From positions 68,812 through 100,811 of the forward strand of contig JAQTOB010000002.1 of NCBI GenBank assembly GCA_028713575.1: a stretch of DNA of 32,000 nt. The letters run 5' to 3'. Made by a program: the position numbers and the translations under genes. Source of the stretch: Patescibacteria group bacterium. Its GTDB lineage: Bacteria > Patescibacteriota > Patescibacteriia > UBA2591 > UBA6264. This document shows, piece by piece, positions 2,828 through 31,373 of this stretch (positions are counted from its first letter, which is position 1; every line of letters begins with the position of its first letter). The notes under the pieces were generated by a model, which saw only the letters and a program-made list of their open reading frames with translations, was not told the DNA's origin and did no database searches.

Positions 2828-3534
2828 TATTACCAGAATCAATTAAATTAAAAAAAGAATTGAAAAGAGTGGCTAATCCAAAGCGGGCAAAAACATCCCA
2901 ACGATTTTTTAAAACAGGGAGAGGAGAGTATGGAGAAGGGGATGTATTTCTGGGAATCAATACTCCTCAACAAAGGAAAATAGCCGCGAAATATAATAAT
3001 CTTAGTTTAACAGAAATAAAAAAACTTTTAAAAGAAAAAATTCATGAATGCCGTTTTATCGCTTTAGTCATTTTGATTAAAAAATATCAAAAGGTTGAAC
3101 AAAAAGAAAAAAAACAAATTTTTGAATTTTATTTAAATAATTCTAAAAAAATAAATAATTGGGACTTAGTTGATATTTCTGCGCCAAAAATTATCGGCGA
3201 TTATCTTTTAGATAAAAAAAACAAAAAAATTCTTTATCAGTTAGCCAAATCAAATAATCTTTGGCAAAAAAGAATCGCTATTTTGGCCACATTTTCTTTT
3301 ATTAAAAATAATGAATTTGAACATACTTTTAAAATCAGTAAACTTTTATTTAATGACCAACATGATTTAATTCATAAAGCAATTGGTTGGATGTTAAGAG
3401 AAGTGGGGAATAAAAATCAAAAACAAGAAGAATTATTTTTAAAAAAATATTCAAAACAAATGCCGCGAACGGCCTTGCGATACGCAATTGAAAAATTTGA
3501 CGAAAAAAAAAGAAAAGAATATTTAGAACCGTAA
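2824..3534 (+). CDS. DNA alkylation repair protein (AlkD-like HEAT-repeat family)
   Basis: RAKTSQRFFKTGRGEYGEGDVFLGINTPQQRKIA...NNWDLVD.SAPKIIG...LWQKRIAILATF...HDLIHKAIGWMLREVG follows the family pattern. ATGA overlap with the rarA stop. Confidence 0.85.
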   Translation: MILPESIKLKKELKRVANPKRAKTSQRFFKTGRGEYGEGDVFLGINTPQQRKIAAKYNNLSLTEIKKLLKEKIHECRFIALVILIKKYQKVEQKEKKQIFEFYLNNSKKINNWDLVDISAPKIIGDYLLDKKNKKILYQLAKSNNLWQKRIAILATFSFIKNNEFEHTFKISKLLFNDQHDLIHKAIGWMLREVGNKNQKQEELFLKKYSKQMPRTALRYAIEKFDEKKRKEYLEP

Positions 3535-18454: not shown

Positions 18455-19006
18455 TTAAATCCTAAATTCTAAAACTGGAAATTTTTTAATAATCGTATAA
18501 ATCGGACCGCTTATTTTTAGTTCGCTTTTCATTAAATCAATTGAGGTAATAAAAAATTCTTTTTCTTCTATTTTTTGATTTAAAAAAGAATCAGATATGC
18601 TAATAGATGTTTTTGCCCGACCGAACGTTAAATGCATTTGCCAGGGTCTTTGGTCTATTTTAAGTCCGATTTTTTTTAATTCTTGACCAATGTTTTTTTG
18701 CAAATCAAATATTTTATGTTCCTCAACTTCTCGGCACTTAAAAAACAATATCCGCGAGAAATGCCCAATTTGCCCGATTTTTAACCTAATTTTGTCCGAA
18801 ATAACCATTTTTCTTAAAATATCTTTGACTTTTTCTATTTCCCTGTTCTCCAATTCGCCCAAAAAATGCAAAGTTAGATGAAGATTTTCTTTTTTTACCC
18901 ATTTTATCCCAATTTTTATTTCCTTTTTAATTTCTTTTATTCTTTTTTCTAAAATCTCTTTTACTTCCATGGGCAAATTAACAGCAATAAAACTTCGTAT
19001 TTTCAT
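18455..19006 (-). CDS. thpR: RNA 2',3'-cyclic phosphodiesterase (2H phosphoesterase, ThpR/LigT family)
   Basis: Both HxT/S motifs are present: HLTLHFLG and HLTFGR. The ~180-aa size is typical for the family. Confidence 0.85.
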   Translation of the reverse strand: MKIRSFIAVNLPMEVKEILEKRIKEIKKEIKIGIKWVKKENLHLTLHFLGELENREIEKVKDILRKMVISDKIRLKIGQIGHFSRILFFKCREVEEHKIFDLQKNIGQELKKIGLKIDQRPWQMHLTFGRAKTSISISDSFLNQKIEEKEFFITSIDLMKSELKISGPIYTIIKKFPVLEFRI

Positions 19007-19012
19007 AAAATT

Positions 19013-19021
19013 ATTATAACA
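19013..19021 (-). promoter_or_regulatory. Extended -10 promoter TGtTATAAT ending 6 nt before the thpR ATG
   Basis: The minus strand reads TGTTATAAT (19021-19013), then aatttt, then ATG (19006). Confidence 0.5.
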
Positions 19022-19030
19022 TTTTCTAAA

Positions 19031-19065
19031 ATTAAAAGTAGTCTGAGATTAAACTCTAGACTACT
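19031..19065 (-). terminator. Rho-independent terminator of the upstream ncRNA (minus strand)
   Basis: AGTAGTCT-A-GAG, tttaat loop, CTC-AGACTACT (19065-19037). This gives 8 + 3 bp with one bulge, followed by TTTAATTTT. Confidence 0.7.
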
Positions 19066-19074
19066 TAATTTTGA

Positions 19075-19266
19075 GGCCCTGGCTGGACTTTCACCAGCGA
19101 CCCTCCTTTTTTCAACAAAACAACAATTAAGATATAGTTCCAAGATTTTGAAAAAAAATCCTAATCGTTTTGGTATCATATTACAAGGCGCTCTTAATTA
19201 GCCGGCTCCTTTTTCCGAACAACTAAGTTGGGAAAAGGCACAAAAACGAACTAAGCTATCAGGGCC
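19075..19266 (-). ncRNA. Unclassified structured RNA with tRNA-like acceptor/T-arm geometry (~192 nt)
   Basis: No ORF occurs in the 362-nt gap. The 5' GGCCCUG (19266-19260) pairs perfectly with the 3' CAGGGCC (19081-19075). It abuts the hairpin GCUGG-UGAAAGU-CCAGC (19098-19082). The 5' AUAGCUUAGUU resembles the tRNA D-arm consensus. The region has internal hairpins, is locally GC-rich in an AT-rich genome, and carries a dedicated terminator. Confidence 0.6.
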
Positions 19267-19332
19267 ATTTGTTTATAATTTTTTCTTTTTTTATGTTTTT
19301 GAAGAACAAATATATTTTAAATTTTTCTTCAT

Positions 19333-19361
19333 TTGTCAAGTTCTCTTTTTTTGTGTAAAAT
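19333..19361 (+). promoter_or_regulatory. Promoter TTGTCA-17-TAAAAT ending 7 nt before the radical SAM gene ATG
   Basis: -35 at 19333-19338 and -10 at 19356-19361, with the ATG at 19369. Confidence 0.5.
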
Positions 19362-19368
19362 ATGAAAT

Positions 19369-20370
19369 ATGAAAGAGGCGTTACTTTATAAAAAACTGAA
19401 TAACAATGATGTCAAATGCCTTGTTTGTCATCATCAATGTCTGATTTCTCAGGGACAAAGAGGATTATGCGGAGTCAGGGAAAATCAAGGGGGCAAGTTA
19501 TACAGTTTAGTTTATAATAAAATTATTGCTTTTCACCTTGACCCGATTGAAAAAAAACCGCTTTTCCATTTTTTACCTAACACTTATTCTTTATCTGTTG
19601 CCACTATGGGTTGTAATTTTTTTTGCCTTCATTGCCAAAATTATGATATTTCTCAAGGACTAAGAAAAAACAAAAAAATTATGGGTGAAAAAATAAGCCC
19701 GAAAAAAACCGTAAGTTTGGCTCTACAATACAAAGTTCCCAGTATTTCCTATACTTATACTGAACCGACGATTTTTCTTGAATACGCCTTAGAAACAATG
19801 AAACTGGCAAAAAAACAAGGGCTAAAAAACGTCTGGGTCAGCAACGGTTATTTTTCATCTCAAACCTTAAAACTTATCACCCCTTATCTTGACGCCATTA
19901 ACATTGACCTAAAATTTTTTGATTCTAATTTTTATCAAAAAATCTGCGGAGGCAAACTAAAACCCATTTTAAATAATTTAAAATTATTGAAAAAATCAAA
20001 AATTTGGCTGGAAATAACCACTTTGTTGATTCCCGGATATACCGACAAAAACAAACAATTGGAAGAAATCGCTCTGTTTATAAAAAAAGAATTAGGAGAA
20101 GATGTCCCTTGGCATATTTCCGCTTTTTATCCTGTTTATAAAATGAATAATATATCCCCTACTCCTTTGAGGTTGATTGAAAAGGCCGTGGACATTGGGC
20201 AAAAAACCGGATTAAAATATGTTTACGCCGGCAATTTGAACATTAATGAAGATACTTTTTGTCCTCAATGTCAAAAAAAAGTGATTGAACGAAAAAATTA
20301 TAACATAAAAATTCATCTTAAAAACGATTTTTGCTCTCAATGTGGAAATAAAATTCCCGGCATATTTTAA
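19369..20370 (+). CDS. AmmeMemoRadiSam-system-type radical SAM enzyme (PflA-like activase fold)
   Basis: N-terminal Cys cluster VKCLVCHHQCLISQGQRGLCGVREN. Radical SAM motif GCNFFCLHCQNYDIS (CxxxCxxC). C-terminal CPQC...CSQCG. The overall pattern matches this family as I recall it. Confidence 0.8.
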   Translation: MKEALLYKKLNNNDVKCLVCHHQCLISQGQRGLCGVRENQGGKLYSLVYNKIIAFHLDPIEKKPLFHFLPNTYSLSVATMGCNFFCLHCQNYDISQGLRKNKKIMGEKISPKKTVSLALQYKVPSISYTYTEPTIFLEYALETMKLAKKQGLKNVWVSNGYFSSQTLKLITPYLDAINIDLKFFDSNFYQKICGGKLKPILNNLKLLKKSKIWLEITTLLIPGYTDKNKQLEEIALFIKKELGEDVPWHISAFYPVYKMNNISPTPLRLIEKAVDIGQKTGLKYVYAGNLNINEDTFCPQCQKKVIERKNYNIKIHLKNDFCSQCGNKIPGIF

Positions 20371-23119: not shown

Positions 23120-24601
23120 ATGAATCCCGTTCTTTTCAAATCTCAAAATATTTCTAAAAAACAAATTTCTTTCAGTTGTTCCAAATTTAAATATAATTTT
23201 TTAAATCATAAAAAAGGCGGGATAAGATTTAGGTTGTTTTTAGTCTCCTTTTTAATGTTGATTATTTTTCAACTTGATAATTGCCTTGCCCAAGAAATAA
23301 TTTTTGACCCAGAATACATTATTTCTGACCACCAATTAACTGACCATCAATCAATGGACTTTGACCAAGTTCAAAAATTTTTAAATCAAGCAAATGGGGC
23401 TTTAAAAGATTATCGCGCCGTAGATGTAGATGGCCGAGAAAAAAGTGCGGCAGAAATAATTTATCGCGCCAGTCAAGAATATAAAATTAATCCTCAAGTA
23501 TTAATTACTTTGTTGCAAAGAGAAAAAAGTTTAATTACAAAAAAATCACCAACCAATGATGACTATAATTGGGCAACCGGATTTACTTGTTATGATTATG
23601 CCTCCCCTGTCTCCCGTTTTAGAGGATTTGCCCGCCAAGTAGACCGCGCTGCTTGGCGTTTTCGTTATTACCTTGAACACCCTTGGCAATTCCAATTTAG
23701 AGTCGGTATTACCACTAAAACCTTAAGCAATTCAAAAGATAGAACATTAATTAATAAATTCGGCCGTTTTATAATTCCCAAAAATATGGCCACCGCTAGT
23801 TTATACATTTATGCTCCTCATCTTTACGATAATTGGCTTTTTTGGCAAATCTGGCAAAATTGGTTTGCAGACAAGCAACAAGAATATCCGGAAGGAAGTT
23901 TATTGAGAATAAAAAACGAAAAGGGAGTTTGGCTTATCCAAAACGGCCAACGAAAACCGTTTTACTCCAAAACAGTTTTTCTTTTAAGTTATAAATTTGA
24001 AAACGTTAAAGACATTGAAGCGGAAAATTTACAAAAATATCCCATAGGAGCGGCCGTGAGTTTTCCAAATTATTCTTTAGTTAAATCTAAAAATGAAATT
24101 TTTATGTTAATAGATAATATTAAAAGGCCAATTTCTGAAAAAATGTTTAAAAATATAGGCTTTCATCCGGAAGAAGTGATTTTGGTTGAAGACTCTGATT
24201 TATCTTCTTATCAAGAAGGCAATCCTGTTCTTTCGCCATATCCTAGCGGAGCCCTTTTACAGGACAATAATACCAATGCAGTTTATTATGTAAAAGACAA
24301 TTTTAAATATCCCATTATTGATATCAGTATTTTGCAGGCCAATTATCCTTACAGTCATATTATTAAAGTCAATCCAATGGAATTGGCTGATTTTGAAACA
24401 AAAGAACAAATCAAATTCAGAGACGGCACTCTAATTAAATCTTTTAATTTGCCAACAGTCTATATTATTATTCAGGGGAAACGCTTGCCAATTATTTCGG
24501 CCGAAGTTTTTGAAGCCCTTGGCTATCAATGGGATAATATTATTCAGGTTGACGAATCAATTTTAAACACTTATTCTTTAGGTGAATCCTTAAACATTTA
24601 A
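23120..24601 (+). CDS. Secreted/membrane-anchored protein of unknown function with four C-terminal ~50-aa repeats
   Basis: TM segment FRLFLVSFLMLIIFQL. A conserved-looking N-domain reads SAAEIIYRASQEYKINPQVLITLLQREKSLI...NWATGF.CYD...GFARQVDRAAWRFRYY. Four repeats follow the pattern vy.I.nGkR.PI.s..vF...gy....i..V....l..Y..G. The gene starts 1 nt after the clpB stop. Confidence 0.6.
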   Translation: MNPVLFKSQNISKKQISFSCSKFKYNFLNHKKGGIRFRLFLVSFLMLIIFQLDNCLAQEIIFDPEYIISDHQLTDHQSMDFDQVQKFLNQANGALKDYRAVDVDGREKSAAEIIYRASQEYKINPQVLITLLQREKSLITKKSPTNDDYNWATGFTCYDYASPVSRFRGFARQVDRAAWRFRYYLEHPWQFQFRVGITTKTLSNSKDRTLINKFGRFIIPKNMATASLYIYAPHLYDNWLFWQIWQNWFADKQQEYPEGSLLRIKNEKGVWLIQNGQRKPFYSKTVFLLSYKFENVKDIEAENLQKYPIGAAVSFPNYSLVKSKNEIFMLIDNIKRPISEKMFKNIGFHPEEVILVEDSDLSSYQEGNPVLSPYPSGALLQDNNTNAVYYVKDNFKYPIIDISILQANYPYSHIIKVNPMELADFETKEQIKFRDGTLIKSFNLPTVYIIIQGKRLPIISAEVFEALGYQWDNIIQVDESILNTYSLGESLNI

Positions 24602-24602
24602 T

Positions 24603-25400
24603 ATGATTTGTTTCGCTTCTATTGTCCCCCACTCTCCTTTGCTTATTCCAAATATAAATCGGGACAATTTAATAAAAAATAAAAAAACCATTGAAGCCCT
24701 GAATAATCTTGCTGATGATTTAGCAAAAATCAAACCGGAAATCTTAGTAATGATTTCATCACACGGGCCAATTTTAGAAGACGCCTTCTCCTTAAATCTT
24801 TCTCCTCAATATTCCGGCGAATTTAAAACATTTGGCGATTTAACCAATAAAATTGAATTAGACGGCAACATGGAGTTGAATTATAAAATAAAAGAATTTT
24901 TTGAAACCGATTCCCCCGATATCCCATTAATAATGGTAACTGAGCCAAATCTGGATTACAGTTTTTCCGTTCCTTTATATTATTTTACAAAAAAATATAA
25001 AAATTTTTCTCTTGTTCCAATTGGTTCTTCCAAATTAGACATTCAAAAACATTTTGATTTTGGCAAAAAATTAAAAGAAGAATTAATTTTAAATAATAAA
25101 AAAATCGGCCTTGTTGTTTCTGCTAATTTTTGTTATTGCTCAGAGGAATCCGGAGAAAAAAATGTTTTCTTAGGTAAAAAATTTGACCAAAATTTGATTA
25201 AATTGATTCAAAACGAACAAATAGGTCAATTTTTAAACTTAGACCAAAAATTAGTGAAAAAATTCCAGGAAATAAGTTTACCGGCGATTCTGATTCTTTT
25301 AGGAATCTTAAAAGATTTAAAATATAAAACAGAAATTCTCTCTTATGAAATTCCTTTTGGTAGCGGTCAAGCAGTAATAAATTTTAATTTTAATAAATAA
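24603..25400 (+). CDS. LigB/Memo-superfamily (class III extradiol dioxygenase subunit B-like) protein
   Basis: ICFASIVPHSPLLIP and ILVMISSHGP match the N-terminal His motifs of LigB-like proteins. LDYSFSVPLYYF aligns to the LDHG..VPL motif, with Tyr in place of His. Confidence 0.6.
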   Translation: MICFASIVPHSPLLIPNINRDNLIKNKKTIEALNNLADDLAKIKPEILVMISSHGPILEDAFSLNLSPQYSGEFKTFGDLTNKIELDGNMELNYKIKEFFETDSPDIPLIMVTEPNLDYSFSVPLYYFTKKYKNFSLVPIGSSKLDIQKHFDFGKKLKEELILNNKKIGLVVSANFCYCSEESGEKNVFLGKKFDQNLIKLIQNEQIGQFLNLDQKLVKKFQEISLPAILILLGILKDLKYKTEILSYEIPFGSGQAVINFNFNK

Positions 25401-30107: not shown

Positions 30108-31373
30108 TTACTTAAATCCCCAATGTTCCAACGCTTCTTTTAATTCTAAATGGTCGCGAGCATAAATCTTTAAAGGAATTTTTTTTATAGTCGCCTCTAT
30201 GGCCTGTTTGGCGGCGCGGGCGCCAGCCAAACTTCCCCGTGGATGTCCGTGAATACCGCCACCAAAATTAATGATTAAATCATGTCCTAAAATTTTCATT
30301 AATTTATCAGTTAAACCGGGATGCAAACCGCCGGAGGCAATGGGTAAAACAGGCCTAAGCTTCCCCCAATTTTCTCTTAATTTATTAAATTCTCGCCAAT
30401 CTTCTTTCAATAATTCATTAATTTTAATGACTTCTTCTTCCTCTCCTTCCATTTTCCCCACCACGGTTCCGGTATGAAATTGGTCTACCCCGGCCAAGCG
30501 AGCTAAATTTGCCAAAACTAACATGGAAATGCCGTGTTTTTTATTTCGCGTAAAAGTTGAATGCCCAGCGCGATGACCATGAATGATTAGGCCTAAATCC
30601 GCATTTCTTAAAGATTGAACTCCGGCCCAACCGGCAGTAATAACATCTATCATCACACATTGCCCCCCTATTTTTTTAACAAAAGCCGATCTTTTTAGCA
30701 TTATTTCCGTTGGAGCCGTCACGTTAAAAACATAAATTTTCTTTTTGCCCGTCTGTTTTTCAACTTGTTTTTTAAGAAGTAAAACTTTTTTTACCCTGTC
30801 AGTAAATCTATTAAAAGATAAATCCGTCAGGTTTTCGTCATCTTTTATTACGTCAACTCCATTTTTAAAAATCTGGGCGGCCAATTCGGCATTTTGAGAC
30901 GAGGTTAAACCTAATTTCGGTTTTATAATACAACCAATTAAAGGCCGATTGTAAATGCCCGTTATTTTTCTAATGCCACTTATTCCCCATTTCGGCCCGG
31001 GATATTTATTGATGTATTTTTCAGGAAACTCTATGTCTTCTAATCTTAGATTTTTTACCGCCTTCATGCTGAAAATATTGCCGGCAATGCTGGAAAGAAG
31101 TTGTGGAATGCTTGCCGGTTCAAACAAGGCCAAAGGATAAGCGATTTTGAAAATGCCTGTTTTCACGTTGACATAAAAAATACGCGCGGCCAATCTTTTT
31201 AAAATATCTGATGATAATGTATTTATTTTCGTCCAGGTGCCAATAGAAGATTCTTCTGCTGTTTTAATGGCCAATTCCTTCAAGGATAATCTTGATTCTC
31301 CGTAAAAAGTGGCAACAATTTCATTCTGATAATTTGGCTTATAATTTAATTTTAAATAATCGTTTTTTGTCAT
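30108..31373 (-). CDS. rbcL: Ribulose-1,5-bisphosphate carboxylase/oxygenase large subunit, form III-type (or II/III)
   Basis: Catalytic motifs are intact: EESSIGTWT, GNIFS, IIKPKLGL, VIKDDEN (carbamylated Lys), IHGHRAGH, FHTGTVVGK, ASGG and FGGGIHGHP. At 421 aa with no small subunit gene, it looks like the archaeal/CPR type. Confidence 0.9.
   Translation of the reverse strand: MTKNDYLKLNYKPNYQNEIVATFYGESRLSLKELAIKTAEESSIGTWTKINTLSSDILKRLAARIFYVNVKTGIFKIAYPLALFEPASIPQLLSSIAGNIFSMKAVKNLRLEDIEFPEKYINKYPGPKWGISGIRKITGIYNRPLIGCIIKPKLGLTSSQNAELAAQIFKNGVDVIKDDENLTDLSFNRFTDRVKKVLLLKKQVEKQTGKKKIYVFNVTAPTEIMLKRSAFVKKIGGQCVMIDVITAGWAGVQSLRNADLGLIIHGHRAGHSTFTRNKKHGISMLVLANLARLAGVDQFHTGTVVGKMEGEEEEVIKINELLKEDWREFNKLRENWGKLRPVLPIASGGLHPGLTDKLMKILGHDLIINFGGGIHGHPRGSLAGARAAKQAIEATIKKIPLKIYARDHLELKEALEHWGFK

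Follow-up and report, generated by a model that had tools for sequence, protein, structure and literature searches.

A tRNA-like non-coding RNA in a variable cargo slot upstream of thpR in Patescibacteria

Results

The locus and the fold of the RNA

The stretch of DNA analysed in this study, referred to as the window, comprises 32,000 nucleotides of contig JAQTOB010000002.1 from a Patescibacteria group bacterium. On its minus strand, a structured RNA lies directly upstream of thpR, the gene for a 2H phosphoesterase (18455–19006, minus strand; Pfam LigT_PEase, E = 9.5e-18), whose product shows 100% identity to a protein of Patescibacteria with the annotation RNA 2',3'-cyclic phosphodiesterase. 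thpR is followed on the same strand by the genes for a family-2 glycosyltransferase (GT2), gltX and an M23 peptidase. The upstream side carries a radical-SAM gene and clpB, which are divergent, and TruB, Ddl, two-component systems and a RuBisCO-like gene are encoded further off. The window is ordinary housekeeping DNA of the candidate phyla radiation (CPR).

The RNA (19266–19074; this and all following positions of the RNA and its signals are on the minus strand) forms a cloverleaf-like four-way junction and is followed by a terminator (19064–19028). A structured RNA had been proposed here in an original prediction made from the window alone, and all of the helices listed in it could be read from the sequence at their positions. 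The minimum free energy (MFE) of the 251-nt region is −75.2 kcal/mol, which corresponds to z = −4.4 against dinucleotide shuffles, and none of 200 shuffles was as stable. Homologues were found at two related loci, L001 and L003, and in L055, a strain variant of the window. The sequences of the window, L001 and L003 represent three lineages and have lengths of 193, 130 and 126 nt, respectively; the folding z-scores of the homologues are −3.0 and −2.3.

The two ends of the RNA are paired with each other. The acceptor 5' strand GGCCCUG (19260–19266, positions 1–7 in tRNA numbering) is preceded by a conserved leader, AUUAUAAACAAAU (19267–19279, defined by alignment), and pairs with CAGGGCC (19081–19075), which together with the discriminator U (19074) makes up the acceptor 3' strand (19074–19081). 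The next bases are CAAAA, and CCA is not encoded. The T-arm (GCUGG, loop UGAAAGU, CCAGC; 19082–19098) directly abuts the acceptor 3' strand. The 7-bp acceptor stem is therefore coaxial with the 5-bp T-stem and its 7-nt loop, as predicted, and 12/12 pairs of this stack are kept in the three lineages. On the 5' side, the tRNA-like segment GAUAGCUUAGUU (19260–19249, read from the sequence) leads into the D-arm. The extra A, U8-A9, the D-stem 5' strand GCUU (19256–19253) and A14-G15 (19251–19259) are invariant in the three lineages, including the single additional nucleotide before U8 that had already been noticed. The D-stem 3' strand GAGC (19193–19190) is flanked by A21 and G26 (19189–19194). 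The analogue of the variable loop, AGGGUC (19099–19104), runs from A44 to C48; these two nucleotides and their respective partners, G26 and G15, are invariant. The complete set of invariant core positions consists of U8, A9, A14, G15, A21, G26, A44, C48, G53-C61, U54 and A58. The roles of the core nucleotides, including the 15-48 pair and the fold of the T-loop, have been described previously (PMC4810234).

The remainder of the RNA consists of two expansions. Arm A is an irregular hairpin of approximately 55 nt (19195–19250) that is inserted in the D-loop at the site of G18/G19, and its hairpin fold is common to all three lineages; in the window it contains the internal hairpin CCUUUUCC/GGAAAAAGG (19238–19208, read from the sequence). 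Arm B (19105–19188) occupies the position of the anticodon arm, with a base formed by CCUU (19188–19185) and AAGG (19108–19105), and includes a second hairpin, AGGAUUUU/AAAAUCUU (19162–19142, read from the sequence). The single insert of about 125 nt that was thought to replace the 3' strand of the D-stem is not supported; GAGC is present, its pairing is kept in L003, and the extra length is distributed over the D-loop hairpin and arm B. Arm B is 84 nt long in the window, of which approximately 63 nt (~19183–19120) are found only in the window and L055, and there are only 24–25 nt at this site in L001 and L003, with a 7-nt loop (UAUCAAG) in L001 and a 10-nt loop (AUGUCCCAAC) in L003. Only the basal CC/GG pairs of arm B are conserved, and the rest is variable. 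No other copy of the 63-nt expansion was present in the window or the loci, and its origin from a repeat or a miniature inverted-repeat transposable element was rejected for this reason.

The cloverleaf with the D-stem is the unconstrained MFE structure in L003 and lies only 2–4 kcal/mol above the MFE in the window and L001. The MFE structure of the window prefers a rival register of the D-stem, CUUAGUU/AAUUAAG, which is broken in L003.

Conservation of the tRNA-like core

The loci of thirteen relatives of ThpR were fetched, and the order thpR-GT2-gltX-M23 is conserved among them. The RNA is located directly upstream of thpR in L001 (202–331) and in L003 (2808–2933), whose ThpR proteins are 64% and 53% identical to that of the window. 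L055 is 99.7% identical to the window. All of the acceptor, D-stem and T-stem pairs (16/16) are kept in the three lineages, and 48/48 pair cells are standard pairs; three pairs are changed on both sides and two on one side. When the partner columns are slid by one to three positions, pairing falls to 18–60%. The terminal helix retains 7/7 pairs in the three lineages, with changes in L003 (C4-G69 to U-A, and U6-A67 to U-G). In the D-stem (4/4 pairs kept), GCUU/GAGC is replaced by GCUU/AAGC in L003, which converts U13-G22 into U13-A22. The T-stem (5/5 pairs kept) appears as GCUGG/CCAGC, GCCGG/CCGGC and GCCAG/CUGGC, with two pairs changed on both sides.

The core, composed of the acceptor stem, D-stem, T-arm and linkers, shows identities of 94, 80 and 83% between the lineages. 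The DNA identities of thpR (67–68%) and of the GT2 gene and gltX (70–79%) serve for comparison. Unlike the core, arms A and B diverge freely; the identity of arm A is 75% between the window and L001, and 46–52% with L003. The T-loop UGAAAGU is invariant across lineages whose ThpR proteins share only 53–64% identity. Selection acts on the RNA and not on a protein.

A functionless relic, i.e. a decaying tRNA pseudogene, would be in keeping with the narrow and patchy distribution of the element (3/12 informative loci), its large variable insertions, the lack of an anticodon, and the strain-level changes in the promoter and arm B. However, conservation of the core exceeds that of the flanking coding DNA, and every stem pair is kept, with compensating double changes. 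Nor would decay preserve an invariant T-loop that is not that of a tRNA across diverged lineages. We therefore consider a relic to be distinctly unlikely.

Absence of the anticodon and the elbow

The T-loop has G55 and A56 where a tRNA has U55 and C56, which precludes the G19-C56 elbow pair. No 7-nt anticodon loop containing U33 together with a conserved anticodon was found among the three homologues. The string UUGAAAA (19115–19109, inside arm B, read from the sequence) had been taken for the anticodon loop of tRNA-Phe(GAA). It is absent from L001 and L003, and in L055 the substitution T19114G, one of only three in 1.6 kb between the window and this strain, turns its U33 into G. ARAGORN with default settings (tRNA, intron and tmRNA modes) reported nothing in the element and no tRNA or transfer-messenger RNA (tmRNA) gene in the 32 kb. 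At a threshold of 80% with introns allowed, a "tRNA with intron" was placed exactly at the element ends in all three sequences, and the anticodons assigned to the homologues are inconsistent: Ser(tga), Leu(taa) and Val(aac). The frame is tRNA-like, and the anticodon is not there.

These results bear on the proposal that the element is a functional tRNA with insertions, such as tRNA-Phe(GAA), that is spliced to approximately 75 nt. The tRNA register of the acceptor stem, D-stem, variable loop and T-stem agrees with it, as do the occurrence of UUGAAAA in the window and the relaxed ARAGORN call that spans the element. However, the default search is empty, the relaxed anticodons disagree, and the string is missing or altered in the homologues. 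Removing the inserts would still leave an RNA with neither G18/G19 nor U55/C56, and the inserts have no group I or bulge-helix-bulge features, none being reported by Rfam. A spliced tRNA is largely refuted, and we give it hardly any credence.

Coding potential

The gap had been described as free of open reading frames (ORFs). It does contain a 58-aa ORF (19179–19003) that overlaps the RNA and whose stop overlaps the thpR ATG, though it is not conserved: its ATG is located inside the insertion specific to the window, and numerous stops interrupt the frame in L001 and L003. The ORF has no Pfam match, and no reading frame is conserved across the three lineages. A micro-ORF starting from the GUG of the T-loop would encode 9, 10 or 20 aa in the three lineages, and the residues that vary in it (Q/R/W and G/E) coincide exactly with the compensated positions of the stem.

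The existence of the 58-aa ORF, and a Shine-Dalgarno-like AAGGAG(G) located 6–10 nt before the GUG in all three lineages, could be taken as signs that the region encodes a small protein. The stops in two lineages, the variation of the micro-ORF, which tracks the compensation of the stem, and the lack of a Pfam match leave such a protein with a practically negligible chance. In the window, AAGGAGG (19094–19110 region) belongs to the 3' strand of arm B, where it is paired with CCUU, 7 nt before the T-loop GUG. AAGGAG or AAGGAA is kept in L003 and L001 although the downstream micro-ORF is not conserved.

Promoter, small genes and terminator

The cassette that contains the RNA begins with a promoter composed of TTGACA (19339–19334) and TAAAAT (19319–19314; in total 19314–19339, read from the sequence and the alignment). 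The −35 and −10 boxes and the ATATATT that follows are conserved in the alignment with L055, L003 and L007, with TAAAAT and TAAGAT as variants of the −10 box. The spacer is 16 nt long in L055 (1051–1066), L003 and L007, and 14 nt in the window (19320–19333), where it was shortened by a 2-bp deletion relative to L055. The cassette ends with an intrinsic terminator (19028–19064), in which GUAGUCUAGAG and CUCAGACUAC fold into a hairpin (19064–19038) that is followed by UUUUAAUUUU (19037–28). This terminator, which the original prediction had correctly assigned to the RNA, is retained in L001 and L003, with substitutions that compensate each other. The bulge in its stem is the most likely reason why it escaped a simple terminator scan.

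Two small genes, A and B, share the cassette with the RNA in the related loci. The cassette of L003 is composed of the promoter, gene A (86 aa), gene B (100 aa), the RNA and the terminator. In L001, gene B and the RNA are present, and the contig is cut upstream. The RNA begins 8–9 nt past the stop of gene B in L001 and L003, with no promoter or terminator between them. In L007, gene A is directly followed by the same terminator, without the RNA. Genes A and B are absent from the window, where the last ~20 nt of gene B are fused to the 5' untranslated region (UTR) and the RNA is intact. The conserved leader matches the last codons and the stop of gene B in L001 and L003; judged from the alignment, the window leader is a remnant left after deletion of genes A and B.

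The same position holds different contents in other relatives: a KH-domain (KhpA-like) protein in L128 and L129; Z1/NERD genes in L005, together with two gene-B paralogues that have plain terminators and lack the RNA; and nothing but the promoter, a stretch resembling a ribosome binding site and the terminator in L125 and L126. The gap between the radical-SAM gene and thpR (window 19007–19368) is a slot whose cargo varies and whose promoter and terminator are conserved. Proteins A and B have no Pfam match and no homologues beyond themselves. An exhaustive search with their sequences returned only WD40-repeat proteins, which share a short blade-like motif, and gave no functional lead. The gene B family (~100 aa; L003 2498–2800, L005 2148–2462 and 2585–2887, L001 3–194) has its WD40 match at residues 16–52, and the paralogues of L005 carry a CxxC pair.

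The arrangement of the cassette raises the possibility that the RNA is a cis-acting 3'-UTR module of the small-gene mRNA, acting as an exonuclease block or as "punctuation" for RNase P/Z that determines the 3' end and half-life of this mRNA, with no role of its own. The RNA and gene B form one transcription unit in L001 and L003, separated by only the 8–9 nt, and the end of gene B is still attached to the RNA in the window. The tRNA-Other of Bacillus cereus is likewise embedded in a longer RNA (PMC3399842). However, the RNA and the promoter persist in the window although no gene is left for them to serve, the 3' end is already protected by the terminator hairpin, which stands alone in L007, and the gene B paralogues of L005 have plain terminators. 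Moreover, selection on eleven tRNA-core positions exceeds the needs of a simple roadblock. A cis-acting module is thus possible but rather unlikely.

Relationship to thpR

An extended −10 box, TGTTATAAT (19013–19021), is located 6 nt before the thpR ATG at 19006. TGnTATAAT occurs at exactly this distance in the window, L001 (~375–398), L003 (~2978–3001), L005 and L008, and no Shine-Dalgarno sequence precedes thpR in those five lineages; the thpR mRNA is probably leaderless, as judged from these motifs. The promoter of thpR lies past the terminator of the RNA, and the RNA therefore belongs to a separate, variable transcription unit. An AT-rich motif, CTGYTATAATTAAATTRTTATTTAATTTCAAG, is conserved upstream of thpR in lineages without the RNA (L005 ~2930–2975, L008 ~1950–2010, L125 ~790–830), and it may be a second promoter or an operator.

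Several cis-regulatory identities were considered. A T-box or riboswitch leader of thpR-GT2-gltX was rejected, because the −10 box of thpR follows the terminator and Rfam gave no T-box match. No alternative pairing with the 5' strand of the terminator was seen by eye. An attenuator of thpR was also rejected; thpR has its own promoter, and L007 uses the same terminator without the RNA.

A functional link between the RNA and thpR had been suggested; in one form of this idea, the RNA would be a YrlA-like client or partner (substrate, decoy or scaffold) of ThpR in RNA repair. All three copies are located directly upstream of thpR on the same strand, and LigT/ThpR enzymes act on tRNA-type RNA ends in vitro. 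However, thpR is transcribed from a promoter beyond the RNA terminator, and nine of the twelve informative relatives keep thpR without the RNA, their slot holding unrelated cargo or nothing. Pfam scans of 27 ORFs across the 32-kb window detected neither a TROVE (Rsr) nor an RtcB domain, and no Y-RNA was matched by Rfam even at E ≤ 10. No clear functional tie between the RNA and thpR is seen beyond adjacency, and a partnership with ThpR is highly unlikely.

Distribution

The RNA is carried by 3/12 informative lineages. It is absent upstream of thpR in L005, L007, L008, L009 and L125–L129, and L130 is cut off too near thpR to be informative. A scan of JGI metagenomes with a T-arm pattern gave 113 matches; the true ones belong only to the known lineages, and the others are domain-1 hairpins of group II introns or coding DNA. 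A three-block pattern, which is unable to match the long arm B of the window, was run against 185,579 species genomes and found only the L001 contig and one chance match; such exact-match patterns may miss diverged copies. Viral contigs, phage records and plasmid records gave no match. With covariance model R1, built from the three sequences, a second copy was not found in the window or in 14 Patescibacteria loci. The RNA family is real but narrow.

The contig of L001/L123 (CAZAGY010000070.1) is labelled "uncultured Gammaproteobacteria bacterium". Its genes and their order match those of the Patescibacteria window, and it is probably a mis-binned contig.

Comparison with known RNAs

Scanning the whole window at the Rfam gathering scores gave no family. 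At E ≤ 10, only noise was obtained around the three homologues, including the antisense of a tRNA 3' end (HPnc0260), SpF41 and group II D1, and there was no match to tRNA, tmRNA, signal recognition particle (SRP) RNA, RNase P RNA, 6S RNA or Y RNA. The view that the element is not a standard tRNA, tmRNA, SRP RNA or RNase P RNA is thus upheld, and its suggested 6S-like or YrlA-like identity is not. RNase P RNA was considered for the strings GAAAGUCC, AAGAGCGC and CCGGCUAA and rejected because of their wrong order, the wrong size and the lack of an Rfam match. 6S RNA was rejected because the conserved fold is a four-way junction and not a rod-like duplex with a central bubble.

The RNA shares with class-I bacterial tRNAs the 7-bp acceptor stem on a 5-bp T-stem with a 7-nt loop, the 4-bp D-stem, the core nucleotides, a short variable loop of the RGGUC type and a single discriminator base. 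It differs from them in having an additional A ahead of U8, a D-loop hairpin and the T-loop UGAAAGU without an elbow. It also lacks a 7-nt anticodon loop, a conserved anticodon and an encoded CCA, and it is undetected by ARAGORN (default) and by the Rfam tRNA model. In tmRNA, the acceptor stem formed by the ends likewise abuts the T-arm, with a large insertion between the two sides. Here, however, pair 3:70 is C-G in place of G-U, a resume codon and a tag ORF are lacking, the T-loop departs from the canonical form, and the RNA has half the usual size. The tmRNA mode of ARAGORN (-m) gave no match even at a relaxed threshold.

The tRNA-Other of B. cereus is a pseudo-tRNA embedded in, or transcribed with, a longer RNA that has its own promoter and terminator; like the RNA studied here, it is tRNA-derived, non-translational and restricted to few related genomes (PMC3399842). 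It has, however, the normal size of a cloverleaf and a Trp anticodon, and it is found by tRNA predictors (PMC3399842). The two RNAs have no sequence similarity, and the part that tRNA-Other plays in oxidative stress and the cell wall is not transferable. YrlA and other bacterial Y RNAs are also non-coding RNAs with a tRNA-like module. The 5' and 3' ends of YrlA form the stem that binds Ro (Rsr), its tRNA-like part has canonical D- and T-loops, and its gene adjoins rsr, often together with rtcB. In contrast, the ends form a 7-bp acceptor-type stem here, the loops are non-canonical, no rsr gene is nearby, and Rfam gives no match.

mascRNA of MALAT1 and the 3' tRNA-like structures (TLSs) of plant viruses resemble the present RNA as tRNA mimics at the 3' end of a longer transcript, and they are recognised by tRNA enzymes through the acceptor side. 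They are eukaryotic or viral, and any processing of the present RNA is hypothetical. Viral TLSs go far to retain the elbow (PMC4810234), whereas the RNA studied here has given it up.

The 5' hairpin of domain 1 (D1) of group II introns (Rfam RF02003) contains an identical 20-nt hairpin, UCGCYRGUGAAAGUCYRGCC. This sequence (window 19080–19100) matches D1 hairpins in most of the other metagenome hits (L010–L122, soil contigs). The loop of the D1 hairpin presumably has the same T-loop-type geometry. Only this hairpin is in common with group II introns, as the D1-D4 model scores 10 bits in L001 against a threshold of 49 bits, and the T-loop-type module probably arose independently in the RNA and in group II D1. 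From these comparisons, the RNA is a tRNA-derived non-coding RNA outside every described family.

Other features of the window

The radical-SAM gene (19369–20370, plus strand) and a Memo/LigB-like gene (24603–25400, plus strand) are separated by 4 kb and may belong to an AmmeMemoRadiSam-type set. An ORF of 493 aa (23120–24601, plus strand) between clpB and the Memo-like gene has no Pfam match. A homologue of the RuBisCO large subunit is encoded at 30108–31373 on the minus strand (Pfam E = 3e-87). CPR genomes commonly carry such RuBisCO-like genes.

Discussion

In this study, we described an RNA that has the core of a tRNA without the means of decoding. The reading that we tentatively favour, with a confidence just short of an even balance, is that it mimics a tRNA outside translation and accumulates as a stable small RNA with the shape of a tRNA. 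It would be a lineage-restricted RNA derived from a class-I tRNA, non-decoding and still selected as an RNA. A sigma-70-type promoter would drive it as the last element of a variable cassette that consists of the optional genes A and B and the terminator, and the RNA would then either be excised from the transcript of the cassette or remain as the structured 3' end of that transcript. The retention of an intact RNA in the window after the loss of genes A and B supports this reading.

The fold keeps the 12-bp acceptor/T stack together with the nucleotides of the contacts U8-A14-A21, A9-A23-U12, G15-C48, G26-A44, G53-C61 and U54-A58. The parts read by the translation machinery have been replaced, the elbow by the D-loop hairpin and the UGAAAGU T-loop, and the anticodon loop by a variable arm. 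The flat face of the G19-C56 elbow is read by the ribosome (L1 stalk and L5), by T-box leaders and by the RNase P specificity domain (PMC4810234). Since the elbow is missing, the ribosome, T-box leaders and other elbow readers should be excluded. Readers of the acceptor/T minihelix could still bind, namely the catalytic side of RNase P, 3'-trimming enzymes and CCA-adding enzymes, with a synthetase or some other protein that binds tRNA as further possible candidates. Conservation, covariation, the tRNA core, the missing anticodon and the separate transcription unit are shown by the data, and processing and a binding partner are inferred.

Several points weigh against a stable, selected tRNA mimic. 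The RNA is dispensable; it is missing from 9/12 informative related loci, one of which has a ThpR that is 58% identical. The covariation statistics are thin because they are derived from only three lineages, and 14 of 500 shuffles reach the observed values. With a spacer of 14 nt in the promoter, expression of the RNA may be weak in this strain. The loss of G19-C56 removes a main contact of bacterial RNase P (PMC4810234), which makes excision of the RNA uncertain.

A more specific proposal is that the RNA is a "tRNA" reduced to its acceptor arm, CCA-tailed and used outside translation, either as a non-ribosomal aminoacyl carrier or as a natural client of ThpR. G1-C72, G2-C71, C3-G70 and U73 match what we take to be the acceptor signature read by bacterial CysRS. 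We regard this proposal as having a very slim chance. If either version is true, CPR bacteria would possess a bacterial tRNA mimic that belongs to a new class and whose enzymatic partner is defined.

To our knowledge, only a few bacterial tRNA look-alikes that function outside translation are known, namely tmRNA, YrlA, tRNA-Other and the cell-wall tRNAs. Each of them revealed an unexpected use of the tRNA shape. The narrow distribution of the present RNA limits the reach of the finding. The favoured reading, a non-translational mimic, implies a "half-mimic" design, in which the acceptor/T stack and the core are under selection and variable hairpins have taken the place of the elbow and the anticodon. 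This design predicts which tRNA-binding factors can see the RNA, and the RNA would thereby provide a simple test system in CPR bacteria.

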